Virus genome (UHGV): UHGV-1383670
Length of the DNA stretch: 61,667 bases
Origin: a virus
Strand: one strand, 5' to 3'
This document shows, one piece after another, positions 1 through 14,400 of the stretch. Position 1 is the first letter of the stretch; every line of letters begins with the position of its first letter. The notes under the pieces are model-generated. The model had not been told where the DNA came from and did not search any database. It worked only from the letters and a program-made list of their open reading frames with translations. The position numbers were made by a program, and so were the translations under genes.

Positions 1-3000
1 GCAGGAGCAGCTGGCCGACTGGCCGAAGGATGCCGAGCTGAACGAGGCCCGGACCCGTCACGGCGAAGTGCTGGATCAGCTGAAACCGAAGAAAAAAGAG
101 TCTGCCCCGACTGTTGCCAATCCGGAAACGCCGGCGCAGAAGTCGCAACAGGATAATCTGCAGTCGTGGTCGCGCATTTCCAGCGGCCAGCGTCAGGCTT
201 CGCAGAAAAATCTCGCAGAAATGCGTCGCATGCGTGCGCAGGCTGCACCGACTGATCGGTTTGCTGAGCTGGTGCGTCGTATCGAGTTCCAGAACCAGAG
301 GGAAACCAGTAACCCGCAACGTGTTCTTGCGTCCCTACGTGCAGCTGAATTGAGCGGGCAGTACGACGCGAAAGGCATGCAGCTCGCACAGTGGCTTATC
401 CGCCAGTACCCGAATGTGGCCCGTTCTCTGAACATCGAGATGAAACAGGGTAGTGATGATCTGCCAGCAGGTAACTATAACGTTCCGACGCGGTTGATCT
501 CACTCTACAGCAACTACACGAACGAGCGCGGGCAGAACGTTGCCGGCACTGATGCTGTAACGGCCACACACGAAATCATGCACCATCTGGAACGTATGTT
601 GCCCCGCGACGTGCAGGAGGCCATTGCCGAGCGCTGGTTCGACGCGATGAAAGCCCGTCTGGCTGAATACAAATCCGCTGGCCAGACCCGGAGAGGCGAT
701 CTGCTGGCTGACCTGGTGGCTGGTATGTATGGCGACCGGGCGGGGCTGGAGCGCGCACGTCAGGCCATGATGAGTGGTGAGCTGCCCGGGAGCGACTACC
801 AGTTCGCATCTCCGTCTGAATATTGGGCTGAGAACGGCGCCCGTATCATTGCAGAACGCAAGGCAGAGGCAGAGCGCCGCGCTGGACGTAATTGGGTGGA
901 TAAAGCTGTCGATGTTATGCGGTCCATCATCGCGAAGATCCGTAATCTGGTGGGGCGCAGTAGCGACACGCGCACCGAGCTGGATGACGCACTGGATAGC
1001 GTTCTCGCCGGTGACGGTCAGTTCGTTGCCGACGCGACTACCCTGAACCGCGTAGGCGATGACCTCTACGGCTTATCCGATGCTTTCACTGGGGACGACA
1101 TGCCACAGATGCGGTCCGGTCTGGATCCTGACCCGAACCCGCCGAGCACCGCCGACAACGACGGAATGATTAAGCGCTGGTGGGACACCACGAAAAATTG
1201 GACGAGCGATAAACTCACGCAATCCATGCCGAAACTGCTGGCCACCGTGCCAATGCGGCCGCTGGTGCGCGAGCTGGGGCGCAATCTGGCCGGTGCTGCC
1301 GACTATATGCGCCTGAAACAGAGCATGGACGCCATGCGCAGCGAGTGGCATGCGAAGACGGATAAGGTTGCGCAGCGCTGGCTGAAATACCGCGTGGCCA
1401 ACAAGGCCGAGAACGCCGAGCTGATGGATCTGATGCATGAGGCTACCCGCGTGCAGGTAGACCCGTCAGAGAAGTTCGCCCCGCTGATGACCGACCGTGA
1501 GCGCGATGCCCTGCGTACGGCGCCCATCAACTCCAGCCAGTACGAAACGCTGGTGAAGAAGGCCGCCCAGGACAAGAAGCGCCGCGAGGCTCACCGTTCG
1601 CTGCAGGAGCGCTGGAACAAGCTGTCTCCGGAGGCTCGCGAGATCTACATCGAGGTCCGCGATACCTATAAGGCGATGGCCGACGCCTACGAGGGCATTC
1701 TCCTCAAGAATATGGAGAAGGCCATCAACGTGCGTATCAAGAAGGCCGAACGCGAGCACCGCGCCGATATGGAGGAAATCGCAGACCTTGGCCTGACCGG
1801 CCAGGAGAAACAGGACGCGATCGACAAGGCGAACGGCCGCCTGCGCGCCGCGAAGACGAAAATCTCCTGGAACCGCAAGGCACGCATCACGCAGCTGCGC
1901 CAGCAGTTCGAAATGGAGCGCCTGGCCGGCCCGTATTTCCCGCTGGCCCGCTTCGGCAACTTCTTCGTGACCGTCCGCAACAAGCAGGAGGGCTTCGTGG
2001 AGTCGTTCTCCCGATTTGAGGATGTCACCGCCCAGCGCAAGTTCGCCAACATGATGCGCCAGAACCCGAACTATGAGGTTGAGGTGGGCGCGCTCGATGA
2101 TACCGCGTCCGTCCGTAAAGCCGTGGATCCGAACTTCGTAGCGGACGTTGAGGATATCCTGGCCGACCTGCCGAACGCCGATAAGGTGAAGGATGAGGTA
2201 TGGCAGCGGTACCTGGAGACGTTGCCGGATCTGTCCGTGCGTAAGAACCGCATTCACCGTAAGGGCCGCGCCGGCTTCGATGCCGACGCCCTGCGCGCGT
2301 TCGGGAACCAGATGTTCCATGGTTCACACCAGCTGGCCCGCCTGGCTCACTCCTTCGATATGGAAGAGGCGATCGACCAGGCGCGCGAAGAAGCCCGCCA
2401 CACCAATGACCCGGTGCGCGATACGCTGGTGGTGAACGAAATCGCCAAGCGGCATGAGTTCGTCATGAACCCGACCGGCGGCAGCATCGCCCAGGCGATT
2501 ACGTCTGCAGCGTTCATCTATCACCTGTCCGTCAGTCCGGCGGCCGCGATGGTGAACATGTCGCAGACCGTCATTATCGGCGTTCCGATCCTGGCCTCCT
2601 ACCAGGGCGGCGCCAGGGGCTTCACCCGCGCCTCTAACCAGCTGATGAAGGCGCTGCGCGACTTCACGGTCGGCCGTGGGTATGCCGAACGGTCGAAATA
2701 CCTGACGGCCGACGAAAAGGCGGCGATGGAGCAGGGGTATAACACCGGCGTCATCGACCGTACGCAGTCACACGACCTGGCGGGCGTAGGCGAAACCGGC
2801 GTCGAGTACAGCCCGAAACGCGCCAAAGCGATGGCGGCTATCTCCTGGGCGTTCCACCATACCGAGCGGCTTAACAGGGAAGTCACCTTCCTGGCCGCCT
2901 ACCGCATGGCCCGGGCTAAGGGGGAGAGCCACGCGCAGGCAATCAACACCGCCGGCGACCTGACCTGGAAGACGCACTTCGACTACCAGAACACGTCGCG

Positions 3001-3991
3001 GCCGCGCGTCATGCACAGTGACGTCGCGAAGGCGCTGCTGGTGTTCCGCAACTACAACGTCAACATGCTGTGGCGGCTGTTCCGCGATACGCACCAGGCG
3101 CTGAACGGCGAGAGCAAGGAAATCCGCCGGGAGGCGTTCACGCAGCTGGCCGGGATCACCGGCATGATGATGGCCAACGCCGGCATCAAAGGTACCTGGC
3201 TGTTCGGCATCGCGATGGTGCTGGCCGGCCTGTTCCTGGGTGACGATGAGGATCCGGAAGTCGAGCTGAAAAAAGCCATGGTGAAGTCTATCGGCCCGAT
3301 GATGACCGGCCTCGCGCTCGACGGTATCCCGGGATACATCACCGGCACGTCGCTGAGCGAACGTATCGGTATGCCGGACCTGTGGTTCCGCTCGCCCGAT
3401 CGCCAGCTCGAAGGGCAGGACGAGTATAACTACTGGATGCAGCAGGCGCTGGGTGCCGCCCCGGGCATTGTGCAGAACGCAATGCGCGGCTTCGCGATGT
3501 TCAAGCAGGACCAGACGTATCGCGGCATTGAGACGATAGCGCCGAAGGTCATTAAAGACCTTATGCGCGCGTACCGATACCAGACCGAAGGCGTGACAAC
3601 GCTGAAAGGCGATAAGCTGCTGGAAGAGGTGACGCCATGGGAGACGTTCGTGCAGGCGCTGGGCTTCACGCCGGCCGCACTGGCAGAGCGCTATGCTATC
3701 AATAGCGCAAACATGAACAAACAGAACGCCATCATGAAGGAGCGCAAAGCCCTGCTGGACCGCTACGCCCGCGCTGACAAAGCCGGAGACGAAAAGGCGA
3801 TCGAGCGCATCGAGCAGGATATGGACAAGTTCTCAGCCAGGTACCCGGAGCAGGAAATAACCGAGAAGGTGATTCGTAGCTCTCTGCGTACGCGCGAGCG
3901 AAATAGCGAGAACAATGACGCCGGCATGTTGTACAATCGCCGACTGCGGGAGCGCATCCTGGAAGAGCAATCCCCAACGGTATATCGGTAA
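1..3991 (+). CDS. 3' portion (about 1330 aa) of a giant polyvalent virion protein; the frame is open from nt 2, so the gene enters from outside the window. Contains an HExxH (THEIMHHLE) zincin-like metallopeptidase motif.
   Basis: The ORF track shows 68..3991, but the same frame has no stop back to nt 2 (QEQLADWPKDAEL...). HEIMHH motif at about nt 560-580. Long and alpha-helical, with no start codon context at nt 68. Confidence 0.7.
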   Translation, partial: QEQLADWPKDAELNEARTRHGEVLDQLKPKKKESAPTVANPETPAQKSQQDNLQSWSRISSGQRQASQKNLAEMRRMRAQAAPTDRFAELVRRIEFQNQRETSNPQRVLASLRAAELSGQYDAKGMQLAQWLIRQYPNVARSLNIEMKQGSDDLPAGNYNVPTRLISLYSNYTNERGQNVAGTDAVTATHEIMHHLERMLPRDVQEAIAERWFDAMKARLAEYKSAGQTRRGDLLADLVAGMYGDRAGLERARQAMMSGELPGSDYQFASPSEYWAENGARIIAERKAEAERRAGRNWVDKAVDVMRSIIAKIRNLVGRSSDTRTELDDALDSVLAGDGQFVADATTLNRVGDDLYGLSDAFTGDDMPQMRSGLDPDPNPPSTADNDGMIKRWWDTTKNWTSDKLTQSMPKLLATVPMRPLVRELGRNLAGAADYMRLKQSMDAMRSEWHAKTDKVAQRWLKYRVANKAENAELMDLMHEATRVQVDPSEKFAPLMTDRERDALRTAPINSSQYETLVKKAAQDKKRREAHRSLQERWNKLSPEAREIYIEVRDTYKAMADAYEGILLKNMEKAINVRIKKAEREHRADMEEIADLGLTGQEKQDAIDKANGRLRAAKTKISWNRKARITQLRQQFEMERLAGPYFPLARFGNFFVTVRNKQEGFVESFSRFEDVTAQRKFANMMRQNPNYEVEVGALDDTASVRKAVDPNFVADVEDILADLPNADKVKDEVWQRYLETLPDLSVRKNRIHRKGRAGFDADALRAFGNQMFHGSHQLARLAHSFDMEEAIDQAREEARHTNDPVRDTLVVNEIAKRHEFVMNPTGGSIAQAITSAAFIYHLSVSPAAAMVNMSQTVIIGVPILASYQGGARGFTRASNQLMKALRDFTVGRGYAERSKYLTADEKAAMEQGYNTGVIDRTQSHDLAGVGETGVEYSPKRAKAMAAISWAFHHTERLNREVTFLAAYRMARAKGESHAQAINTAGDLTWKTHFDYQNTSRPRVMHSDVAKALLVFRNYNVNMLWRLFRDTHQALNGESKEIRREAFTQLAGITGMMMANAGIKGTWLFGIAMVLAGLFLGDDEDPEVELKKAMVKSIGPMMTGLALDGIPGYITGTSLSERIGMPDLWFRSPDRQLEGQDEYNYWMQQALGAAPGIVQNAMRGFAMFKQDQTYRGIETIAPKVIKDLMRAYRYQTEGVTTLKGDKLLEEVTPWETFVQALGFTPAALAERYAINSANMNKQNAIMKERKALLDRYARADKAGDEKAIERIEQDMDKFSARYPEQEITEKVIRSSLRTRERNSENNDAGMLYNRRLRERILEEQSPTVYR

Positions 3992-5198: not shown

Positions 5199-5497
5199 CC
5201 GAACCCAAACACAACAGCCAACGCAGGGCGCTTTGGGGGATCGTCGCCCTGTTCACCGTCGCCGGCGCCAGTGCCGGCTTCGCTGGTGGCCAGATTTTCA
5301 CCCGGGCAAAAGCCATCGTTGAGGTGGAGTCGATACGCATCGCTTACGCGGAGGCCGATAAGGCCCGTAGCCAGGCGCTGGAAATGTGCCTCCGCCTGGC
5401 GCCGAAAGCCGCTCTCTCAGCTGCAGACGCAGCAAAAGCCGCCAAGGAAGCCGCACAAGCCGCCAATCAGGCGGCAAAAGATGCGGAGGTTAAATGA
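5195..5497 (+). CDS. Small membrane protein (holin/antiholin candidate)
   Basis: ATGA overlap with the upstream gene. One hydrophobic TM (WGIVALFTVAGASAGFAGG) and an Ala/Lys-rich C-terminus. Confidence 0.4.
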   Translation: MTEPKHNSQRRALWGIVALFTVAGASAGFAGGQIFTRAKAIVEVESIRIAYAEADKARSQALEMCLRLAPKAALSAADAAKAAKEAAQAANQAAKDAEVK

Positions 5498-6072
5498 ACC
5501 TCACCACTCCCGTTACCGTCAAAGTCGCCGCGATCGCTGGTGCTGCATGCCTGGTTGTCGGCCTCGCCGGCGGCGCCGCGATCGGCAACTGGCTTCGTGG
5601 GCTGCAGGCTGATGCGGATATCGCCCAGCTGAAAGCCGACCATAAGGAAGCTGAAAAACAGTGGCTGGTGGACCGGAACGCCATCACCACCAAAGCCCAG
5701 CAGGAAACCGCCGCAGCCCTGGAGCGCGAGCGCCAGGCGCGTGACGCAGCTGCTGATCTCGATACGAAATATCAGGAGCTGTTAGCCAATGAGAAACTTA
5801 AGAATGATGCTCTGCGCGGTGATATTGCCTCTGGCCAGCGCCGGGTGCGTATCCTCGAAGCAAACCTTGCCACCGCCAACCTTGCAGCCCGTCAGCACGC
5901 CGCAGGCGGAAGTGCCGGCGCCGGCAGCGTGGGCGATGGAAAAGGAACCGAGCTTACTGCCGAAGGTGGACTCCTTGTTCTCGATATCCGGGACGGAATC
6001 AAACGCAGAGAAGACAAAATAGAGTACCTGCAGAGTTACATCACGGACGTGGTAAAACAGTGCAAAAGGTAG
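5494..6072 (+). CDS. Rz-like i-spanin
   Basis: N-terminal TM, coiled coil, a GQRRVRIL motif, and an embedded +1-frame lipoprotein gene. Start overlaps the upstream stop. Confidence 0.65.
   Translation: MNLTTPVTVKVAAIAGAACLVVGLAGGAAIGNWLRGLQADADIAQLKADHKEAEKQWLVDRNAITTKAQQETAAALERERQARDAAADLDTKYQELLANEKLKNDALRGDIASGQRRVRILEANLATANLAARQHAAGGSAGAGSVGDGKGTELTAEGGLLVLDIRDGIKRREDKIEYLQSYITDVVKQCKR
5789..6022 (+). CDS. Rz1-like o-spanin lipoprotein embedded in the Rz frame
   Basis: Signal peptide with lipobox-like LASAGC followed by a Pro-rich stretch (LPPPTLQPVSTPQAEVPAP). Lies wholly inside the i-spanin gene in another frame. Confidence 0.55.
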   Translation: MRNLRMMLCAVILPLASAGCVSSKQTLPPPTLQPVSTPQAEVPAPAAWAMEKEPSLLPKVDSLFSISGTESNAEKTK

Positions 6073-6135
6073 CGCCGGCTGCTATATTCAATTTGCCTCG
6101 TATCATGTCAGTTATTGCCGTTAATAAAACTCCCG

Positions 6136-6166
6136 TCGCCCGCCATTACCGGCGGGCTTTTTTTAT
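6136..6166 (+). terminator. Rho-independent terminator ending the lysis operon
   Basis: gcccgcc-atta-ccggcgggc stem followed by T9. Confidence 0.65.
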
Positions 6167-6232
6167 TGTGCTATTATTTTCGAGGGCAGCGGAACGTCGG
6201 TCTTGTGCTTGTCGTTAAATCAGCCGCCAGCC

Positions 6233-6266
6233 CACAAAAAAGAAGCCCCCAAATCGGGGGCTTTTT
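6233..6266. terminator. Bidirectional terminator between the lysis operon and int
   Basis: An A-run, then agccccc-aaatc-gggggct, then T5. Positioned between convergent genes. Confidence 0.6.
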
Positions 6267-7532
6267 TCATGCTGCTTCGGTGCCGGCAATGACTGTCAAC
6301 CTGGGCGGTGTCTTGTCCTTAATCATCTGCCGCACGAACGCGTCCCAAATCTCCATCGCTTCCCGCTTCTCCGCGATATAGCTGTAGCGGTCATAGCTTT
6401 TGGAGCTGACATCCTGCAGCGTGTGGTTCTGCAGGCGGTCGCGGATCTCCTTCGTGAGGCCTGCCTTGCCGGCGAGCGTCTTCCAGGTGCGGCGCATGTC
6501 CCGGTTCGTGACGTGCGGGATAACGCCCCGGTCGCGCTGGCGCCACAGGAACGAGTAGAGCGTCTGGTGCTGGACCGACAGCGACGGATCCTTGCTGCCC
6601 GGGAAGAACCAGCCGTGTTCGTTCGGCGTGAGGCTGTCCAGCAGCTCGATGGCCATCTTCGGCAGCGGTATGGCGTGCGGTTTCCCATTCTTGGTTTTCG
6701 ACCAGTCGATCATGCCTTCGGCCGCGTCGTACTGGTCCTTATGCAGGGTGCAGATTTCCTGCACGCGCTGTCCGGTCAGCATCAGCAGCATGATGGCGCG
6801 CGGGTAGGAGGGGTGGATCGGCACGTCCGGGTTTTGAAGCCAGCGCCACATAGTTACCCACTCATCCTCACGCAGCCAGCGCTCACCCTGTACCTTTGGT
6901 TCGGTCGGAATGCCGGCGGCCGGGTTGCTCACCAGGTTGAAGCGGCGCGGGCTGGTGGAGCGGTAATCGTGCTCCGACTTCATGCCCCAGGAATAGGCCG
7001 ACCGGATGTAGCTGCGCACATGGTCAGCCATGGACTTTTTGCCGCGCTCGAAGATCGGACGAATGACATTCACCACGTCCTGCGGCTCGATATCCCGAGC
7101 CAGGCGATTGCGGCCCAGGCTGTCCGCTATCTTGTTCAGCCCCTTCCTGGCCTCCTTGTGGCTCGACTTGCCGGCCGCCTCCAGGGCGTCGGCGTACGCC
7201 TCGAACAGGTCGCCCACGGTACCGGGGCGGGTGTCTCCCTGGACCTTGATGCTGGCGCCCTTGTTGATGGCGCCGGCATAGTCGCGGTTGAACAGCTCCC
7301 GGGCATCCGCCAGGCTGGTGTGAGGGTACTCGCCAATCTTTTTCAGCTTGCGTTTGCCGTCGAGCCACTGCTGGGCGAACCAGTTCGAGGTGACGCGCGT
7401 CGGCATCGGTTTCAGGACGAGAACCAGGCGGCCGGTGCCGCGTCCTTCGCCGTCAGCGAGGGTTTCGCTCTTCTGCGTCTTGGCGACCCGCTTTAGAGCC
7501 TTCTGGATTTGACCATCGGTAAGGGCTGGCAT
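6267..7532 (-). CDS. int: Tyrosine integrase, P4/CP4-57-like (DUF4102 arm-binding N-terminus)
   Basis: N-terminal GRLVLVLKP...GKRKLKKIGEYPHTSLADAR arm-binding motif. C-terminal catalytic region with R..H..R..Y (HVTNRDMRRT...YSY). Confidence 0.85.
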   Translation of the reverse strand: MPALTDGQIQKALKRVAKTQKSETLADGEGRGTGRLVLVLKPMPTRVTSNWFAQQWLDGKRKLKKIGEYPHTSLADARELFNRDYAGAINKGASIKVQGDTRPGTVGDLFEAYADALEAAGKSSHKEARKGLNKIADSLGRNRLARDIEPQDVVNVIRPIFERGKKSMADHVRSYIRSAYSWGMKSEHDYRSTSPRRFNLVSNPAAGIPTEPKVQGERWLREDEWVTMWRWLQNPDVPIHPSYPRAIMLLMLTGQRVQEICTLHKDQYDAAEGMIDWSKTKNGKPHAIPLPKMAIELLDSLTPNEHGWFFPGSKDPSLSVQHQTLYSFLWRQRDRGVIPHVTNRDMRRTWKTLAGKAGLTKEIRDRLQNHTLQDVSSKSYDRYSYIAEKREAMEIWDAFVRQMIKDKTPPRLTVIAGTEAA

Positions 7533-7535
7533 GGC

Positions 7536-8072
7536 TTACACCTCCCTGCGAACGTCCGCGAGGAAGATGATGCGGCCGTGCGGCGTGCGGTTATGGGCCG
7601 AGTGCAACACGGTGTCGTCAAACAGGAACGCGGCACCAGGCTCCCATTCGCGGCGCTCGCCGCCGACCACCAGCGCGCAGTCGCCGTTCTGAGGGACAAT
7701 AAGCCCAACATGCAGCCGCACCACTTCGCCGGTGTAGCCGACGTGCGGGTGGATTTCGGTGCCGGGGCGCATCAGGCTGTAGCCTGCATTCAGCGCTGCA
7801 GGATGGCGGCGAACGATGCCGGCGGCCACCGGCGCAACGTTATCCATATCGCTGCCCTGCCAGCGCACTCCGGAGACAAACCAGCCGCCTCCGTTGATGC
7901 TTTCCGGCCAGGCTGTGTAGCCGTCGCCTTTGACGAGCTGCAGCGCTTCTTCTGTCAGCTGCCGATAGCTGGCGCAGAGATCGGCGGCGAGCGCGGCCGC
8001 TGCCGGGAAGTCGTTCAGGTTCAGGAATCCGCTTACGCGCTCCCCGGTGGGGGAGGTGGTTTCAAGTCTCAA
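7536..8072 (-). CDS. Aspartyl/asparaginyl beta-hydroxylase family protein (LpxO-like cupin dioxygenase); start uncertain (TTG at 8072 or 8165)
   Basis: IHPHVGYTGEVVRLHVGLIVP and FDDTVLHSAHN match 2-His Fe(II)/2OG Asp/Asn-hydroxylase signatures. Its stop lies 4 nt before the int start, so the two look co-transcribed. The N-terminal 30 aa of the longer ORF are low-complexity. Confidence 0.55.
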   Translation of the reverse strand: MRLETTSPTGERVSGFLNLNDFPAAAALAADLCASYRQLTEEALQLVKGDGYTAWPESINGGGWFVSGVRWQGSDMDNVAPVAAGIVRRHPAALNAGYSLMRPGTEIHPHVGYTGEVVRLHVGLIVPQNGDCALVVGGERREWEPGAAFLFDDTVLHSAHNRTPHGRIIFLADVRREV

Positions 8073-8404
8073 AATCTTATCCTCGCTGGTATCGGTTCGG
8101 GGGTGGTTGGTGGTGCTGTTGTTGGTGTCGGTTTGCCCGACGCACCCCCTTTTATTGATCGCCAACCGCTACCAGTCAATAACCGGGAAAATCACCGGTA
8201 ATCAAAGGGTTTGAGAGTGAACGAGCGTGAACTAAAAACTGTGAGTAGGGTGATTGTGGACCACGCAACTACGTTCTAAATTCCGCTTTGTTTTCAAACC
8301 CTTTAGCCGGTGACGCTTCTTAACTGGTGTCGCGGTTTGGTGCTGGTTTCGTTTTGACCTCTCGCATATTCCCGTTCGGTCACTCACCGCCACCAGCATT
8401 ACCG

Positions 8405-8488
8405 CTACGTGTCTTTCAGCGCCAGGCCGACGCAAATCAGCGCCGGTATCGCGATGAGGATGTCCAGCAGATCGCTACCTGTGACCAT
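8405..8488 (-). CDS. Possible 27-aa hydrophobic peptide (MVTGSDLLDILIAIPALICVGLALKDT), a type-I-toxin-like small membrane protein
   Basis: ATG preceded by GAGGTG at a 6-nt spacing. Single TM. Below the ORF-track length cutoff. Confidence 0.2.
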   Translation of the reverse strand: MVTGSDLLDILIAIPALICVGLALKDT

Positions 8489-8635
8489 GCGGCACCTCGC
8501 GAACCCACATTTCATGATGGGACGTTAAGCCGACGCGGCGAGATTTGAAGATGACGAACTTACATTCTCGCCACTTACTCCATACCCGCTTCCGCTTTAG
8601 TCGAAGCCAGCGCTTCGCTTTGATATCTCGCTTAC

Positions 8636-8854
8636 TCACTTCTTACCCCTTAACCGCCGCCAGGCGGTGATGATGAATTTTGGAAGGAACGGGTTTCTGA
8701 CTTCTGGTTTCGGCTGCAGCGCTTCCCAATAGGCGAAAAGGGCGAGGCGCAACGTGCGCCCGCTAGCTATCACCACTTCCGCCCCTTTAACGTGGCCATA
8801 GCAGGCAAGCCACTTGCCTTGATGCTTGATGAAATGCGGTTTTGGATGCTTCAC
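8636..8854 (-). CDS. Hypothetical small basic protein
   Basis: ORF whose start overlaps the downstream gene arrangement. Function unknown. Confidence 0.35.
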   Translation of the reverse strand: MKHPKPHFIKHQGKWLACYGHVKGAEVVIASGRTLRLALFAYWEALQPKPEVRNPFLPKFIITAWRRLRGKK

Positions 8855-9324
8855 ACATCCCCCTTGCCGCCAGGGCGCCAGGCCTTAACGCTGAACGTTT
8901 CTCCATCTCTGGTGCTGGCCAGACCATCCGCGATAGAGTCAAACATTCTGCCATCGCAAGGTGGACGGATGCCGCCCTGGCGCATCATGCCCTGCATCTG
9001 GGAAACAATGTCACAGAGGCTTGCCTGCTGGGCTGCTTCCTTGCCGTTCAGCAGCACGTCCAGATCGCGCACCAGGCGCTGCTTATCCGCCTCGGCTTCC
9101 TTGTACGCCGTCAGCTGCGCGTAGACCTCTGTCAGCTCGTCCAGCAGCGACTTGATACGCTTGGCGCTAAACATCCAGTCGCTGATATCGTACAGGCGGC
9201 ATATTTGGTCAGGGCTACGGTTATACCCCTTACTATCCGCCAGCCGGTTTTCGTTCTCTTCCTCGATCACCTCAACGGCGTGGTCGTACATCTGTTTTTT
9301 GGTTGCTTCGCTGAGTCTGCTCAC
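8851..9324 (-). CDS. Hypothetical phage protein
   Basis: ORF in an operon-like array with 4-nt overlaps. Coiled-coil-rich. Confidence 0.45.
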   Translation of the reverse strand: MSRLSEATKKQMYDHAVEVIEEENENRLADSKGYNRSPDQICRLYDISDWMFSAKRIKSLLDELTEVYAQLTAYKEAEADKQRLVRDLDVLLNGKEAAQQASLCDIVSQMQGMMRQGGIRPPCDGRMFDSIADGLASTRDGETFSVKAWRPGGKGDV

Positions 9325-9847: not shown

Positions 9848-10054
9848 TTACTCCCGCACCGATGGTGCGCATTTGACGGTATTACGTTCATCCCACGCAT
9901 CCAGCTCGGCCTCGTCGTAGAGGACCGTCTTGCCAATTTTCGTGTAGCGGGGGCCGATGCGCAGCGAACGCCAGTTCGCCAGGGTGCGCACCGAGATAAG
10001 CCCCCGGTAGCGGTCGGCAACTTCATCCTGCGTGAGATACCTCTTCTTGCTCAT
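9848..10054 (-). CDS. xis: AlpA/Xis-family excisionase-like HTH protein
   Basis: LTQDEVADRY...SVRTLANWRS...GPRYTKIGKTVLYDEAELDAW is a classic AlpA / phage excisionase winged HTH. Confidence 0.7.
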   Translation of the reverse strand: MSKKRYLTQDEVADRYRGLISVRTLANWRSLRIGPRYTKIGKTVLYDEAELDAWDERNTVKCAPSVRE

Positions 10055-12187: not shown

Positions 12188-12621
12188 TTCGCAATCCCAT
12201 AGACGCGCTGGCCAGGAGTCCCGTACTTGCGCCCGCTCTTCCGGCCGCCGTGGTCGCCAATCTTCCGGTAGACCGCGTGGCGGTAGTAGAGCGTGCCGTC
12301 CTCGTTCTCTTTCACCGGGTGCGGTTGCTGGTGCTCGACGCCTGGCGTCCAGGACTTGTCGCGCTGGTGGTGATCGCCAAAAAGCAGGTCTTTGCGCAGC
12401 TGGTCGATGTACTCCACCTGGCGCCGCGCTTCCTTTTCGCCCATGGCGCCCATCAGCTCCAGCGTAGCGATGGCCATTTCCCACTGGTGAAGGGTATCGA
12501 GCGCCCTGGTGGTCCAGACGCCTGGCGCCGGCCTGGCCGGCTCCTGGATGTTGGGGATCGGCTTCACCGGTGACGGCTCAGAGAACAGCGCCCGGAAGGC
12601 GCCAGCGATGCGTTTAATCAT
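12184..12621 (-). CDS. Hypothetical protein
   Basis: ORF whose stop abuts the next start. No recognisable motif. Confidence 0.45.
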   Translation of the reverse strand: MIKRIAGAFRALFSEPSPVKPIPNIQEPARPAPGVWTTRALDTLHQWEMAIATLELMGAMGEKEARRQVEYIDQLRKDLLFGDHHQRDKSWTPGVEHQQPHPVKENEDGTLYYRHAVYRKIGDHGGRKSGRKYGTPGQRVYGIAK

Positions 12622-13252
12622 GGCTGTCCTCCTGGGGAGGGACGGGGGCGTAAACAGGTCCGGCGAGCGTCAAGCCAGGCACCGGCACGTCGCTAATAGA
12701 AAATACGGTGCCACCGTCAGCTGTGATGAACATGTAACCGATTGTCAGCATGCCATCCGGCGCTACCGGCGCTGGCTGCGGGGCAGCGAATAGTTCGACA
12801 CCTTCCGGTAACTGCTGATAAAGCGAGACGTGAATGCTTTTCCTCTCCCGAGTACCGACATATCGGACAATGCCCACCGGCTCACTGTCTAATACGGCCT
12901 GGCGCCGCGCTTCCTCGTACGCTTCCAGGACCACCGGCAGCAGTTCGCCGTCCTGCAGCTGCTGCGCGAGCGATGGCTTGAACTCCAGCACATCGCTGGT
13001 GGGATCGCACACGTTCGCGAAGAGGGTTTCATAGCCGCCGAAGATGCGGTTGAAGGCGCCTTCTTCCACGGCGAACTTGTAGCAGCGCAGGAAGAAGAGC
13101 TTTTCCAGGCGGGAAAGGTTTTCGAAGTCGATATCGCGAGCTGAATAATTCCAGTTCTCGTACTGGAGGCGCTGGGCGGCACGATAGACGGCCCAGGCTA
13201 ATTTGATGTCGTCGCTGCTTGCAGCGGCCATCCGAACACTGACAGTAGCCAT
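12614..13252 (-). CDS. Hypothetical phage early protein
   Basis: First gene of the leftward operon, downstream of the CI-proximal promoter region at 13253-13380. Confidence 0.5.
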   Translation of the reverse strand: MATVSVRMAAASSDDIKLAWAVYRAAQRLQYENWNYSARDIDFENLSRLEKLFFLRCYKFAVEEGAFNRIFGGYETLFANVCDPTSDVLEFKPSLAQQLQDGELLPVVLEAYEEARRQAVLDSEPVGIVRYVGTRERKSIHVSLYQQLPEGVELFAAPQPAPVAPDGMLTIGYMFITADGGTVFSISDVPVPGLTLAGPVYAPVPPQEDSHD

Positions 13253-13380: not shown

Positions 13381-13977
13381 TTAACCGTGTTGCGTGAAGT
13401 AAATGCGCCGCGCCCAGGTTAGCGGCTGGCTCTGCCTCGATACGCCGGCCGCGCCGGTGACGTTATAGGTTCGAGGCTGATAGCCGCGCTGGATGGTCCC
13501 GATAATCTGCGAGCCGCCTTCCACCTGGCAGACCGCGTAGGTACCGACGAGATCGGCAGGGTCAGCCTCCGGGCCGATGAAGAACAGCCAGCCGTCCAGG
13601 AACGCGAAAGGGCTGTCGGCAGTCCGGGCCTGAACCGCCTGGACGCCATCGGGCAAATCGCCCAGCGGGATAGCGACACGTTCGCGGACATTTTTATCCA
13701 CAGGAGAAATAGTTAGGTCGCCCTGCAGGAAGCCGATGACCGGGCAGAAACGCTGCTCTGTCTGCGCCTGCTCGATGCCGGAGTGAACCATCAACTCGGC
13801 CAGGCCGACCCCCAGGATTTGCGCCAGGGAAACGGCTTCGCTGAGCTGCATCCGGCGGTGGCCGGACAAGGTACGGGACAGCTGCGAAGGCGAGGTATCC
13901 ATTAGTTTTGCGACCTGGCGCAGCGAAATTTTACGGTCGCGCATCTGGTCATCGAAGAAGCGTTTATTTATGGCCAT
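13381..13977 (-). CDS. CI-like phage repressor (N-terminal XRE-type HTH; non-S24 C-terminal domain)
   Basis: ISLRQVAKLMDTSPSQLSRTLSG is an HTH. Divergent from a Cro-like gene. No LexA-like Ala-Gly / Ser-Lys autocleavage signature was recognised. Confidence 0.7.
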   Translation of the reverse strand: MAINKRFFDDQMRDRKISLRQVAKLMDTSPSQLSRTLSGHRRMQLSEAVSLAQILGVGLAELMVHSGIEQAQTEQRFCPVIGFLQGDLTISPVDKNVRERVAIPLGDLPDGVQAVQARTADSPFAFLDGWLFFIGPEADPADLVGTYAVCQVEGGSQIIGTIQRGYQPRTYNVTGAAGVSRQSQPLTWARRIYFTQHG

Positions 13978-14106
13978 GGGCGAACCTCCTGCTCACTGTT
14001 GGCCTGTTTGGTTTACGATCGGTGTTGCCAAAACACAACCGGCATATTGATTTTGGCATTCGGTTTTGCAAACATAATTTCCAAAATAGCAACAGAAGGT
14101 AACTTT
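13978..14106. promoter_or_regulatory. Divergent repressor/cro switch region with repeated TTGCCAAAA / TTTTGGCA / TTTTGCAAA operator-like half sites
   Basis: Motifs at about 14027, 14050, 14063 and 14080, between divergent HTH genes. Confidence 0.5.
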
Positions 14107-14400
14107 ATGACGTTCAAACAAATCAGCGACGTGACGCCGCTGGCAATCCGGAAGTTCCGGAAGTCCCTGGGCCTGAGCCAGAAAGATTTTTGGCTGGGCC
14201 TGGATCTGACCGTGGGGAAGGGGTGCCGCTATGAGACGGGCGTCACACCCATGCCGCCCCACGTCCGCCGGCTGGTCTTCCTGCAATATGGGGAAGCGGA
14301 AAACAAGGACAATGCGCTGCAGCAGATAGCGCAGGGTGTGGATCTCATGCAAACAGGGTTGAAGACCCTGAAAAAGAGCGAAGGCGAGGCCGCGCAATGA
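14107..14400 (+). CDS. Cro-like / XRE-family HTH regulator
   Basis: SLGLSQKDFWLGLDLTVGKGCRYETG is an HTH. RBS GAAGGT. First gene of the rightward operon. Confidence 0.65.
   Translation: MTFKQISDVTPLAIRKFRKSLGLSQKDFWLGLDLTVGKGCRYETGVTPMPPHVRRLVFLQYGEAENKDNALQQIAQGVDLMQTGLKTLKKSEGEAAQ

Follow-up and report, generated by a model that had tools for sequence, protein, structure and literature searches.

A predicted AspH-type oxygenase gene inserted at the integrase translation start of a Lastavirus-like phage genome

Why would a temperate phage carry a small oxygenase gene directly in front of its integrase gene, and on what would the enzyme act? The question is raised by UHGV virus genome UHGV-1383670, analysed here as one stretch of 61,667 bp (GC content 60.1%), hereafter the window. 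On its minus strand, an open reading frame (ORF) of 209 aa, which runs from a TTG at 8165 to a TAA at 7538-7536 and is referred to below as the hydroxylase gene, stops 3 nt (GCC, 7535-7533) before the ATG at 7532 of the integrase gene (int). A preliminary description of this locus had proposed that the gene encodes an LpxO-like hydroxylase of the Asp/Asn beta-hydroxylase family, which could act on lipid A or on a host or phage protein, that it is cargo co-transcribed with int, and that it is expressed from the prophage as a lysogenic-conversion moron. The window resembles temperate phages of about 61-63 kb of the Lastavirus and Parlovirus type, namely the Klebsiella phages LASTA, SJM3, SopranoGao and ZX1 and the Serratia phage Parlo. 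In this study, alignment with such phages and with metagenomic contigs points to a genuine single-gene cargo insertion beside int, and the encoded protein is predicted to be a cytoplasmic oxygenase with the catalytic core of human AspH.

A cassette between the integrase Shine-Dalgarno sequence and start codon

The limits of the insertion can be read from relatives in which it is missing. In L022, an IMG/VR contig of 63,244 bp, the conserved element that precedes int ends 10 nt ahead of the int ATG and there is no hydroxylase gene; by blastn, window positions 8080-8490 correspond to L022 10417-10008, and int begins at L022 10428. The junction of LASTA is the same (...CCAGCGAGGA-CTACCGAAGA-ATG), while that of the window reads ...CCAGCGAGGA-TAAGATT-TTG...hydroxylase...GGGAGGTGTAAGCC-ATG. 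As L022 and LASTA are near-identical to the window in the int region and have no hydroxylase gene there, the segment 7533-8079 is considered an insert, standing in place of the 10-nt spacer (CTACCGAAGA) that separates the Shine-Dalgarno (SD) sequence from the ATG in the relatives (Table 1). The GGAGG motif that now precedes int is missing from the relatives with the empty slot.

L022, LASTA and Parlo have nothing in this slot, which is occupied by other genes elsewhere. A metagenome contig of 61,973 bp (L033), in which int and the lysis genes are 91.5% identical to those of the window at the nucleotide level, has a 112-aa ORF at this place (L033 3701-4039), and SopranoGao (L019) has two ORFs, of 104 aa (1326-1640) and 67 aa (1667-1870); none of these alternative cargo ORFs has a Pfam match. 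The region where integrase translation begins is a hot spot for accessory genes, and the description of the hydroxylase gene as cargo beside int is thereby borne out. Moreover, the hydroxylase-int arrangement recurs at 98.9% nucleotide identity in an independent SRA-derived contig (L024), recorded in four samples. These phages offer a natural gain-of-gene comparison, near-identical genomes having an empty slot, the hydroxylase or other cargo, and we regard the exact splice between SD and ATG, together with the alternative slot cargo, as modest curiosities.

The start codon had been left open between two TTG codons. Both exist and they are the only canonical starts ahead of the conserved part of the protein: TTG 8072 is preceded at 7 nt by GAGGA (8084-8080), whereas TTG 8165 has no SD and falls between the two hexamers of a conserved promoter-like motif that was read from the sequence. 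For the 25 homologues compared (37-70% identity, 154-197 aa), the alignment does not begin until about residue 49 of the 209-aa ORF, the first 31 residues of which are absent from all of them and recur only in a 98% identical copy (P0001). The DNA upstream of 8079 belongs to a conserved non-coding element that is 87-90% identical in hydroxylase-free phages. Given the SD spacing, the lengths and alignment start of the homologues, and the sharing of the upstream DNA with relatives that have no hydroxylase, the true start is almost certainly TTG 8072, yielding a protein of 178 aa. The 31-codon extension upstream of it is probably not translated, being part of the conserved element or of the 5' untranslated region.

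The hydroxylase gene has a GC content at third codon positions of 0.78, like other genes of the window, and its ratios of nonsynonymous to synonymous substitution (dN/dS) are 0.12 against L024, 0.16 against L015, and 0.31-0.32 against L016 and L025. The gene is under purifying selection, and the ORF is not a chance ORF of a GC-rich genome. No second hydroxylase copy was found in the window.

Table 1. Coordinates of the features of the hydroxylase-int locus and of its surroundings in the window
Feature	Position	Strand	Basis or remark
Terminator-like hairpin, back-to-back with the hairpin after int	6138-6157	+	In the spacer of about 190 bp between the spanin-like gene and the end of int
Terminator-like hairpin and T run directly after the integrase stop	6243-6263	-	9-pair stem with 6 GC pairs, followed by CTTTTTTGTG
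Tyrosine integrase gene (int), 421 aa	6267-7532	-	PF00589, PF22022, PF13356; phrog_1, E 3.4e-50
Inserted cassette, 547 nt, hydroxylase gene only	7533-8079		Alignment with L022, LASTA and Parlo
Hydroxylase coding sequence as re-annotated, 178 aa	7536-8072	-	TTG 8072 to TAA 7538-7536
GGAGG, new int SD in the last hydroxylase codons	7541-7545	-	8 nt before ATG 7532; sequence reading
In-frame 5' extension, 31 codons	8073-8165	-	Same DNA in LASTA, ZX1, SopranoGao, L022 and L033, which have no hydroxylase
GAGGA, ancestral int SD, now serving TTG 8072	8080-8084	-	Same GAGGA before the int ATG in L022 and LASTA
Conserved non-coding element, about 320 nt, GC 51%	8080-8400	-	87-90% identity to LASTA, ZX1, SopranoGao, L022 and L033
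Promoter-like motif, TTGACT-17 nt-AATAAA	8151-8179	-	Read from alignments
Excisionase-like helix-turn-helix gene	9848-10054	-	phrog_66 (excisionase and transcriptional regulator), E 5.4e-07
Repressor-like helix-turn-helix gene	13381-13977	-	PHROG transcriptional repressor/regulator matches; synteny with the annotated ZX1 repressor
Regulator gene, divergent from the repressor-like gene	13999-14400	+	PHROG matches

A predicted oxygenase with the AspH catalytic core

The assignment to the Asp/Asn beta-hydroxylase family held up in the Pfam search, which placed the protein in PF05118 (Asp_Arg_Hydrox) with 89.6 bits (gathering threshold 22.6; E 2.6e-25) over profile positions 3-156 of 157. In profile comparison with solved structures, the best relative of the family is the oxygenase domain of human AspH (E 3.5e-30), and L-proline cis-4-hydroxylase is a distant second (E 1.3e-06); aligned to the AspH core with hhalign, the protein gives E 2.8e-25 and 28% identity. 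The AlphaFold2 model of the 178-aa protein (predicted local distance difference test, pLDDT, 94.1; predicted template modelling score, pTM, 0.89) was superposed by Foldseek on AspH structures 6yyy and 5apa over all 178 residues with a template modelling (TM) score of 0.85, and the protein is accordingly modelled as a double-stranded beta-helix of the AspH oxygenase type.

The active site can be described in terms of that of AspH. Residues S130, H141, R150, H152, H188 and R198 (numbering of the 209-aa ORF) are invariant and align with AspH S668, H679, R688, H690, H725 and R735, of which, in AspH, two coordinate Fe and the others contact the C5 and C1 carboxylates of 2-oxoglutarate (2OG) (PMC6817910). 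In the numbering of the 178-aa protein, the predicted Fe(II) ligands are H110 and H157 (H141 and H188 above), and the predicted 2OG contacts are R167 and S99 at the C5 carboxylate and R119 and H121 at the C1 carboxylate. As in AspH, there is no carboxylate ligand, and a near-invariant Gly is found two residues after the first iron His (motif H-V-G). All cofactor-binding residues are thus intact, which, in conjunction with the purifying selection, argues for an active oxygenase. The oxygenase domain covers the whole 178-aa protein, the TPR domain of AspH being absent, and the lack of any membrane segment or signal-like hydrophobic stretch (maximal 19-residue hydropathy 1.08) points to a cytoplasmic location. 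We therefore describe a protein that resembles the AspH catalytic core and is not an AspH orthologue.

Expression signals and surrounding genes

The insert is bounded by the int SD and the int ATG and shows no detectable promoter or terminator of its own. No terminator-like site was found between the hydroxylase gene and int or on the minus strand from 8600 to 8072. As the strand has no terminator between the two genes or just upstream of them, and one right after int, which closes the hydroxylase-int transcription unit, their co-transcription is strongly suggested; the proposal made earlier on this point suits the arrangement and stands as a reading of sequence.

The conserved upstream element, whose 3' portion of about 140 nt is also kept in Parlo, is better conserved than the flanking genes and probably holds the int regulatory or promoter region. 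Both hexamers of its promoter-like motif, TTGACT and AATAAA, are identical in all seven copies of the element, and the motif is a candidate promoter of int and now also of the hydroxylase gene. A simple consensus scan of window positions 5900-9000 called no sigma-70-like promoter, which is weak negative evidence; it passed over this motif, the final -10 base of which is not T. The element further contains a GTTCAC-N4-GTTCAC direct repeat and an invariant hairpin at about 8145-8124. It may serve as promoter or regulatory region of int, or belong to the phage attachment site (attP). A structured-RNA reading of the element was rejected, the covariation term of RNAalifold being positive (that is, giving no support) and Parlo breaking many of the predicted pairs; Rfam gave no match to the element at the gathering threshold or at E <= 1.

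In the window, the gene order is that of the free, non-integrated phage: the lysis cassette is followed by two back-to-back terminators and by int. The spanin-like gene (5494-6072) lies next to this junction, where the two hairpins close the convergent lysis and int units. If attP is outside the upstream element, it would have to be in the spacer between the spanin-like gene and int. The integrase has arm-binding, central and catalytic domains, and its amino acid identity is 90% to L022, 89% to L033, 84% to SopranoGao and 74% to Parlo. The leftward block to which int belongs has the repressor-like gene at its head, the excisionase-like gene within it and the hydroxylase-int pair at its distal end. 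The immunity region, some 5.3 kb upstream of the hydroxylase gene, consists of the repressor-like gene and the divergent regulator gene.

No terminal repeats or evident host flanks were detected in the window. When the conserved element and the spacer downstream of int were compared with E. coli genomes by blastn in search of attP/attB, only chance-level matches (E 5-10) were obtained, and window positions 6000-8600 had no megablast match in 5,426 E. coli genomes. A motif-based scan of 185,579 species-representative genomes revealed no integrated prophage copies or cellular relatives, nor did a 21-mer of the conserved element occur in them. Matches to the 21-mer in L023 and L032 were discarded as chance, since they are isolated 21-nt identities without flanking similarity.

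Two further observations concern other parts of the window. ARAGORN called a tRNA-Gly(ACC) at 12734-12813(+), with an oddly placed anticodon (32) and antisense inside the ORF 12614-13252(-); at its gathering threshold, Rfam found no tRNA in the entire window, and we take the call to be a probable false positive. At the left end, a 1307-aa ORF (68-3991, plus strand), which may extend past the start of the window, is 75% identical in DNA to genes of the Erwinia phages PEp14 and Pavtok, whose counterparts carry conflicting labels (DNA methylase, DarB-like antirestriction protein, transglycosylase).

Relatives, proposed role and comparison with known systems

When searched against 1.84 billion representative proteins, the family profile retrieved the entire superfamily at E <= 1e-3 (9,549 clusters) and 132 clusters at E <= 1e-30; among the best 45 or so matches, almost all are stand-alone proteins of 157-190 aa. 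The phage protein belongs to a small subfamily of stand-alone oxygenases of about 160-190 aa, mainly carried by phages and usually located in early replication or recombination operons. The closest homologue in a GenBank phage, 42% identical, is that of Pseudomonas phage Itty13, where the gene comes after a primosomal/initiator gene and a loader-like gene. Early operons with the gene are also found in L016, L017, L034, L035/36 and L037, often with overlapping start and stop codons, and include genes for a RecA-dependent nuclease, a DnaC/IstB-like loader, an O-like initiator, HNH proteins, RdgC, dUTPase and a large DNA methyltransferase. The commonest neighbour is the initiator-plus-loader module, in five lineages. 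A Pfam Tad3 match (PF25185) was observed in L016 (9782-10357) on the opposite strand, a few kb from the hydroxylase homologue, with no link shown. In IMG/VR, 11 loci have a relative, and the neighbours there include the small and large terminase genes (L005, L011), UvsY and gp23 of a T4-like phage (L010), the family A DNA polymerase PolA (L012, L014), a lysozyme (L013) and DnaC-like loaders. The 833-aa large terminase of L005 (7256-9757) contains Hint and LAGLIDADG domains and is thus interrupted by an intein.

Two relatives deserve a closer description. Apart from the near-identical P0001, the closest homologue (70% identical) is that of the metagenome contig L015, where int is absent. The gene there is part of a 197-aa ORF (L015 4296-4889) whose first 23 or so residues are the start of the excisionase-like gene of the window, the region between that start and the hydroxylase being absent; the gene faces the lysis cassette, and an internal Met (MKRKTGYLNL) may be its true start. 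A cellular homologue of 179 aa (41-44% identical; L026, also L027 and L028) lies several kb from nusA; its gene overlaps two radical SAM genes, one of the SPASM type upstream and another downstream (L026 6767-9661). Such a radical SAM layout is typical of peptide-modification clusters, and the L026 locus looks like one of them.

We propose, with roughly even chances of being right, that the gene encodes a cytoplasmic, stand-alone AspH-type oxygenase that hydroxylates a protein or peptide and is co-expressed with the integrase. The gene would have entered a Lastavirus-like temperate phage as a single-gene cassette between the ribosome-binding site and the start codon of int, taking over the old int SD and providing int, through its own 3' end, with a new one. 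Transcription would come from read-through of the leftward early block or from a promoter in the conserved upstream element; as the gene uses the old SD of int and supplies the new one, whatever transcribes int would also express the hydroxylase, and, if this is true, the enzyme is made in the present phage whenever integrase is made. By homology, the predicted reaction is an Fe(II)-dependent hydroxylation of a C-H bond, with consumption of 2OG and O2 and formation of succinate and CO2. Its target would be an Asp/Asn-type side chain of a host or phage protein or peptide, during infection or lysogenisation. To our knowledge, bacteria lack EGF-domain substrates, and the phage enzyme must therefore have a target other than that of AspH. 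A protein or peptide side chain is nevertheless the most likely substrate class by analogy: among characterised relatives the nearest acts on a protein, a cellular relative is located in a cluster resembling those for peptide maturation, and metabolic partners are missing beside the phage copies.

The timing can be argued from the genomic contexts. Owing to the prevalence of the gene in early lytic operons, including a T4-like context, a role during infection is likelier than classical lysogenic conversion. The prophage-expressed moron of the preliminary description is upheld as regards the insertion, which is evident against collinear relatives; its expression from the prophage fared less well, given the missing promoter and terminator, the free-phage gene order of the window and the homologues, which are mostly in early replication operons of other phages, some of them T4-like, so that lysogenic conversion is unproven. 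More tentatively, and with the odds against it, the proteins could form a phage-borne family of protein hydroxylases whose target, in the early stage of infection, is a protein of the host or of the phage (one serving replication, translation or defence, for instance), and might couple phage development to the availability of O2 and 2-oxoglutarate. If so, host takeover or the lysis-lysogeny decision would for the first time involve a protein hydroxylase encoded by a phage.

Several points weigh against the proposal of a protein or peptide hydroxylase. In AspH, K666 and Q627 hold the carboxylate of the substrate Asp (PMC6817910); in the phage family, the former aligns with a near-invariant Gly and the latter with a variable position. 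Furthermore, the isolated AspH oxygenase domain turns over 2OG and does not hydroxylate EGF-domain substrates (PMC6817910), and since the TPR domain is absent here, the AspH mode of substrate recognition cannot apply. With these features missing and with small-molecule relatives in existence, the substrate is the weak step of the proposal. A universal partner gene did not emerge from an all-against-all comparison of the neighbours at 17 loci, where only replication-module genes recur in subsets. The hhalign alignment to the core of Salmonella LpxO (E 4.3e-22, 28% identity) nearly matches that to AspH, and, this similarity being only slightly lower, the protein represents a separate branch rather than a close relative of AspH. 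The position in an int-proximal hot spot keeps lysogenic conversion alive, a variable slot beside int being a classic place for lysogeny-expressed cargo. Finally, L-proline cis-4-hydroxylase is the second-best structural match (TM score 0.62), and the gene for P0003, a 65% identical homologue, is followed by a gene for a pyridoxal phosphate (PLP)-dependent, cysteine-synthase-like enzyme (PALP), which hints at small-molecule chemistry.

The last two points would fit a metabolic enzyme, the product of an auxiliary metabolic gene active during infection, with a free amino acid or metabolite as its substrate or with the conversion of 2OG to succinate as its main activity. PF05118 enzymes act as tailoring enzymes in natural-product clusters (bioRxiv 10.64898/2026.04.15.718813), a drawdown of 2OG has been proposed for cyanophage oxygenases (PMC3037559), and the 2OG turnover of the isolated AspH domain is uncoupled (PMC6817910). 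However, none of the phage contexts inspected includes a metabolic partner gene, by far the nearest relative of solved structure is a protein hydroxylase, and the minimal domain has no counterpart of the lid elements of the 280-aa proline hydroxylase. We consider a metabolic role unlikely, yet it is the alternative that survives best.

A less probable account, to which we give little credence, is that the gene is prophage cargo for defence or superinfection exclusion. The unrelated small genes that occupy the slot in L033 and SopranoGao would be in line with it, alternative small genes in one slot being the pattern of known prophage hot spots (P2/P4). Nevertheless, PADLOC (5027 models) gave no match for the hydroxylase or for the SopranoGao cargo ORFs, most homologues are in lytic-cycle early operons, some on T4-like contigs, and L015 keeps the gene on a contig without int.

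The annotation as LpxO deserves attention because it is the tempting one for pipelines and readers. It implies that the enzyme, made by the prophage, 2-hydroxylates an acyl chain of lipid A or of an ornithine lipid, thereby changing the outer membrane or the resistance to antimicrobial peptides. Besides the shared Pfam family, the similarity of the core and the variable slot, which is typical for conversion genes, it is favoured by the NCBIfam search, where the best matches are the LpxO equivalog NF033391 (67 bits) and the OlsC equivalog NF052565 (53.5 bits). These scores, however, are far below the respective cut-offs of 500 and 450, and the LpxO match covers only the catalytic core (model positions 120-220 of 297). 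Compared with one LpxO sequence, Salmonella STM4286 (302 aa), whose hydropathy reaches 2.22 at residues 1-19 and 2.53 at residues 284-302, the phage protein has neither of the two transmembrane anchors nor the C-terminal linker, nor any other hydrophobic segment. The H-R-D and F-A motifs of this LpxO sequence are replaced in the phage protein by H-V-G and Y-S, like AspH (Y667-S668). Architecture and active-site motifs therefore speak against a membrane lipid hydroxylase, and so do the early or structural gene neighbourhoods of the homologues on T4-like and other phage contigs, and the lack of signals for autonomous expression. The LpxO-like function given in the preliminary description is not supported: modification of lipid A in a lysogen is much less likely than protein or peptide hydroxylation, and we regard it as very improbable.

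Oxidation of DNA or RNA bases, or the repair of their alkylation, is the least probable of all, since the model matches AlkB-type structures with a TM score of only 0.50 (0.85 for AspH), no TET/JBP or AlkB Pfam family is matched and the active-site hallmarks are all those of AspH, even if ALKBH7 is among the distant fold matches, the initiator and loader genes are neighbours in five lineages, HNH genes adjoin the homologues of L034 and L035, and in L017 the hydroxylase stop overlaps the start of the gene for an 848-aa N6/N4 DNA methyltransferase.

Returning to a protein or peptide hydroxylase, its interest lies in the gap that it would fill. Many phages and giant viruses have genes annotated as AspH-type oxygenases, none with a known substrate, and the literature search for a characterised phage PF05118 enzyme or a prophage LpxO gave annotations only. 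The minimal, re-annotated enzyme of 178 aa should be easy to express. If hydroxylation of a host or phage protein were proven, a new type of phage-host interaction would be described; if not, this is one more accessory gene.

All together, the phage protein can be placed among known systems as follows. AspH (PDB 5apa, 5jqy, 6yyy) is its best match in sequence and structure (24-28% identity), with the same double-stranded beta-helix core, the two-His iron site H679/H725 with Gly at H+2, the 2OG residues R735/S668 (RXS), R688 and H690, and conserved equivalents of E617 and D721; unlike AspH, the phage protein is found without a TPR domain, a membrane anchor or an endoplasmic reticulum context. 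L-proline cis-4-hydroxylase (PDB 4p7w) is likewise a soluble bacterial enzyme, but it is larger (about 290 aa; a 292-aa chain), has extra elements, shares 17% identity and acts on a free amino acid. LpxO and OlsC are bacterial Fe(II)/2OG enzymes of the same Pfam family with a 28-29% identical core, and LpxO departs from the phage protein in its length, its N- and C-terminal transmembrane helices, its H-R-D iron motif and its F-A in place of Y-S. Classical morons bring their own promoter and terminator. As in int-adjacent morons and hot spots, the gene is absent at the same junction in close relatives, and other cargo is found in the slot elsewhere; in contrast to classical morons, the insert is spliced into the ribosome-binding region of int, has no such detectable signals of its own, and depends on those of int. 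Virus AspH-type genes have been annotated in cyanophages P-HM1 and P-HM2, as a core gene of pelagimyophages, where it stands alongside peptide deformylase and ribosomal protein S21, in Limnohabitans phage DC33, and in Mimiviridae and Phycodnaviridae (PMC3037559, PMC7029224, PMC12195039, PMC10598087). Like the present gene, they encode oxygenase domains of about 150-300 aa without assigned function, and many BFVD structures match our model; here, however, the gene is located at the integrase translation-initiation region of a temperate phage of enterobacterial type, rather than in an early or core module.

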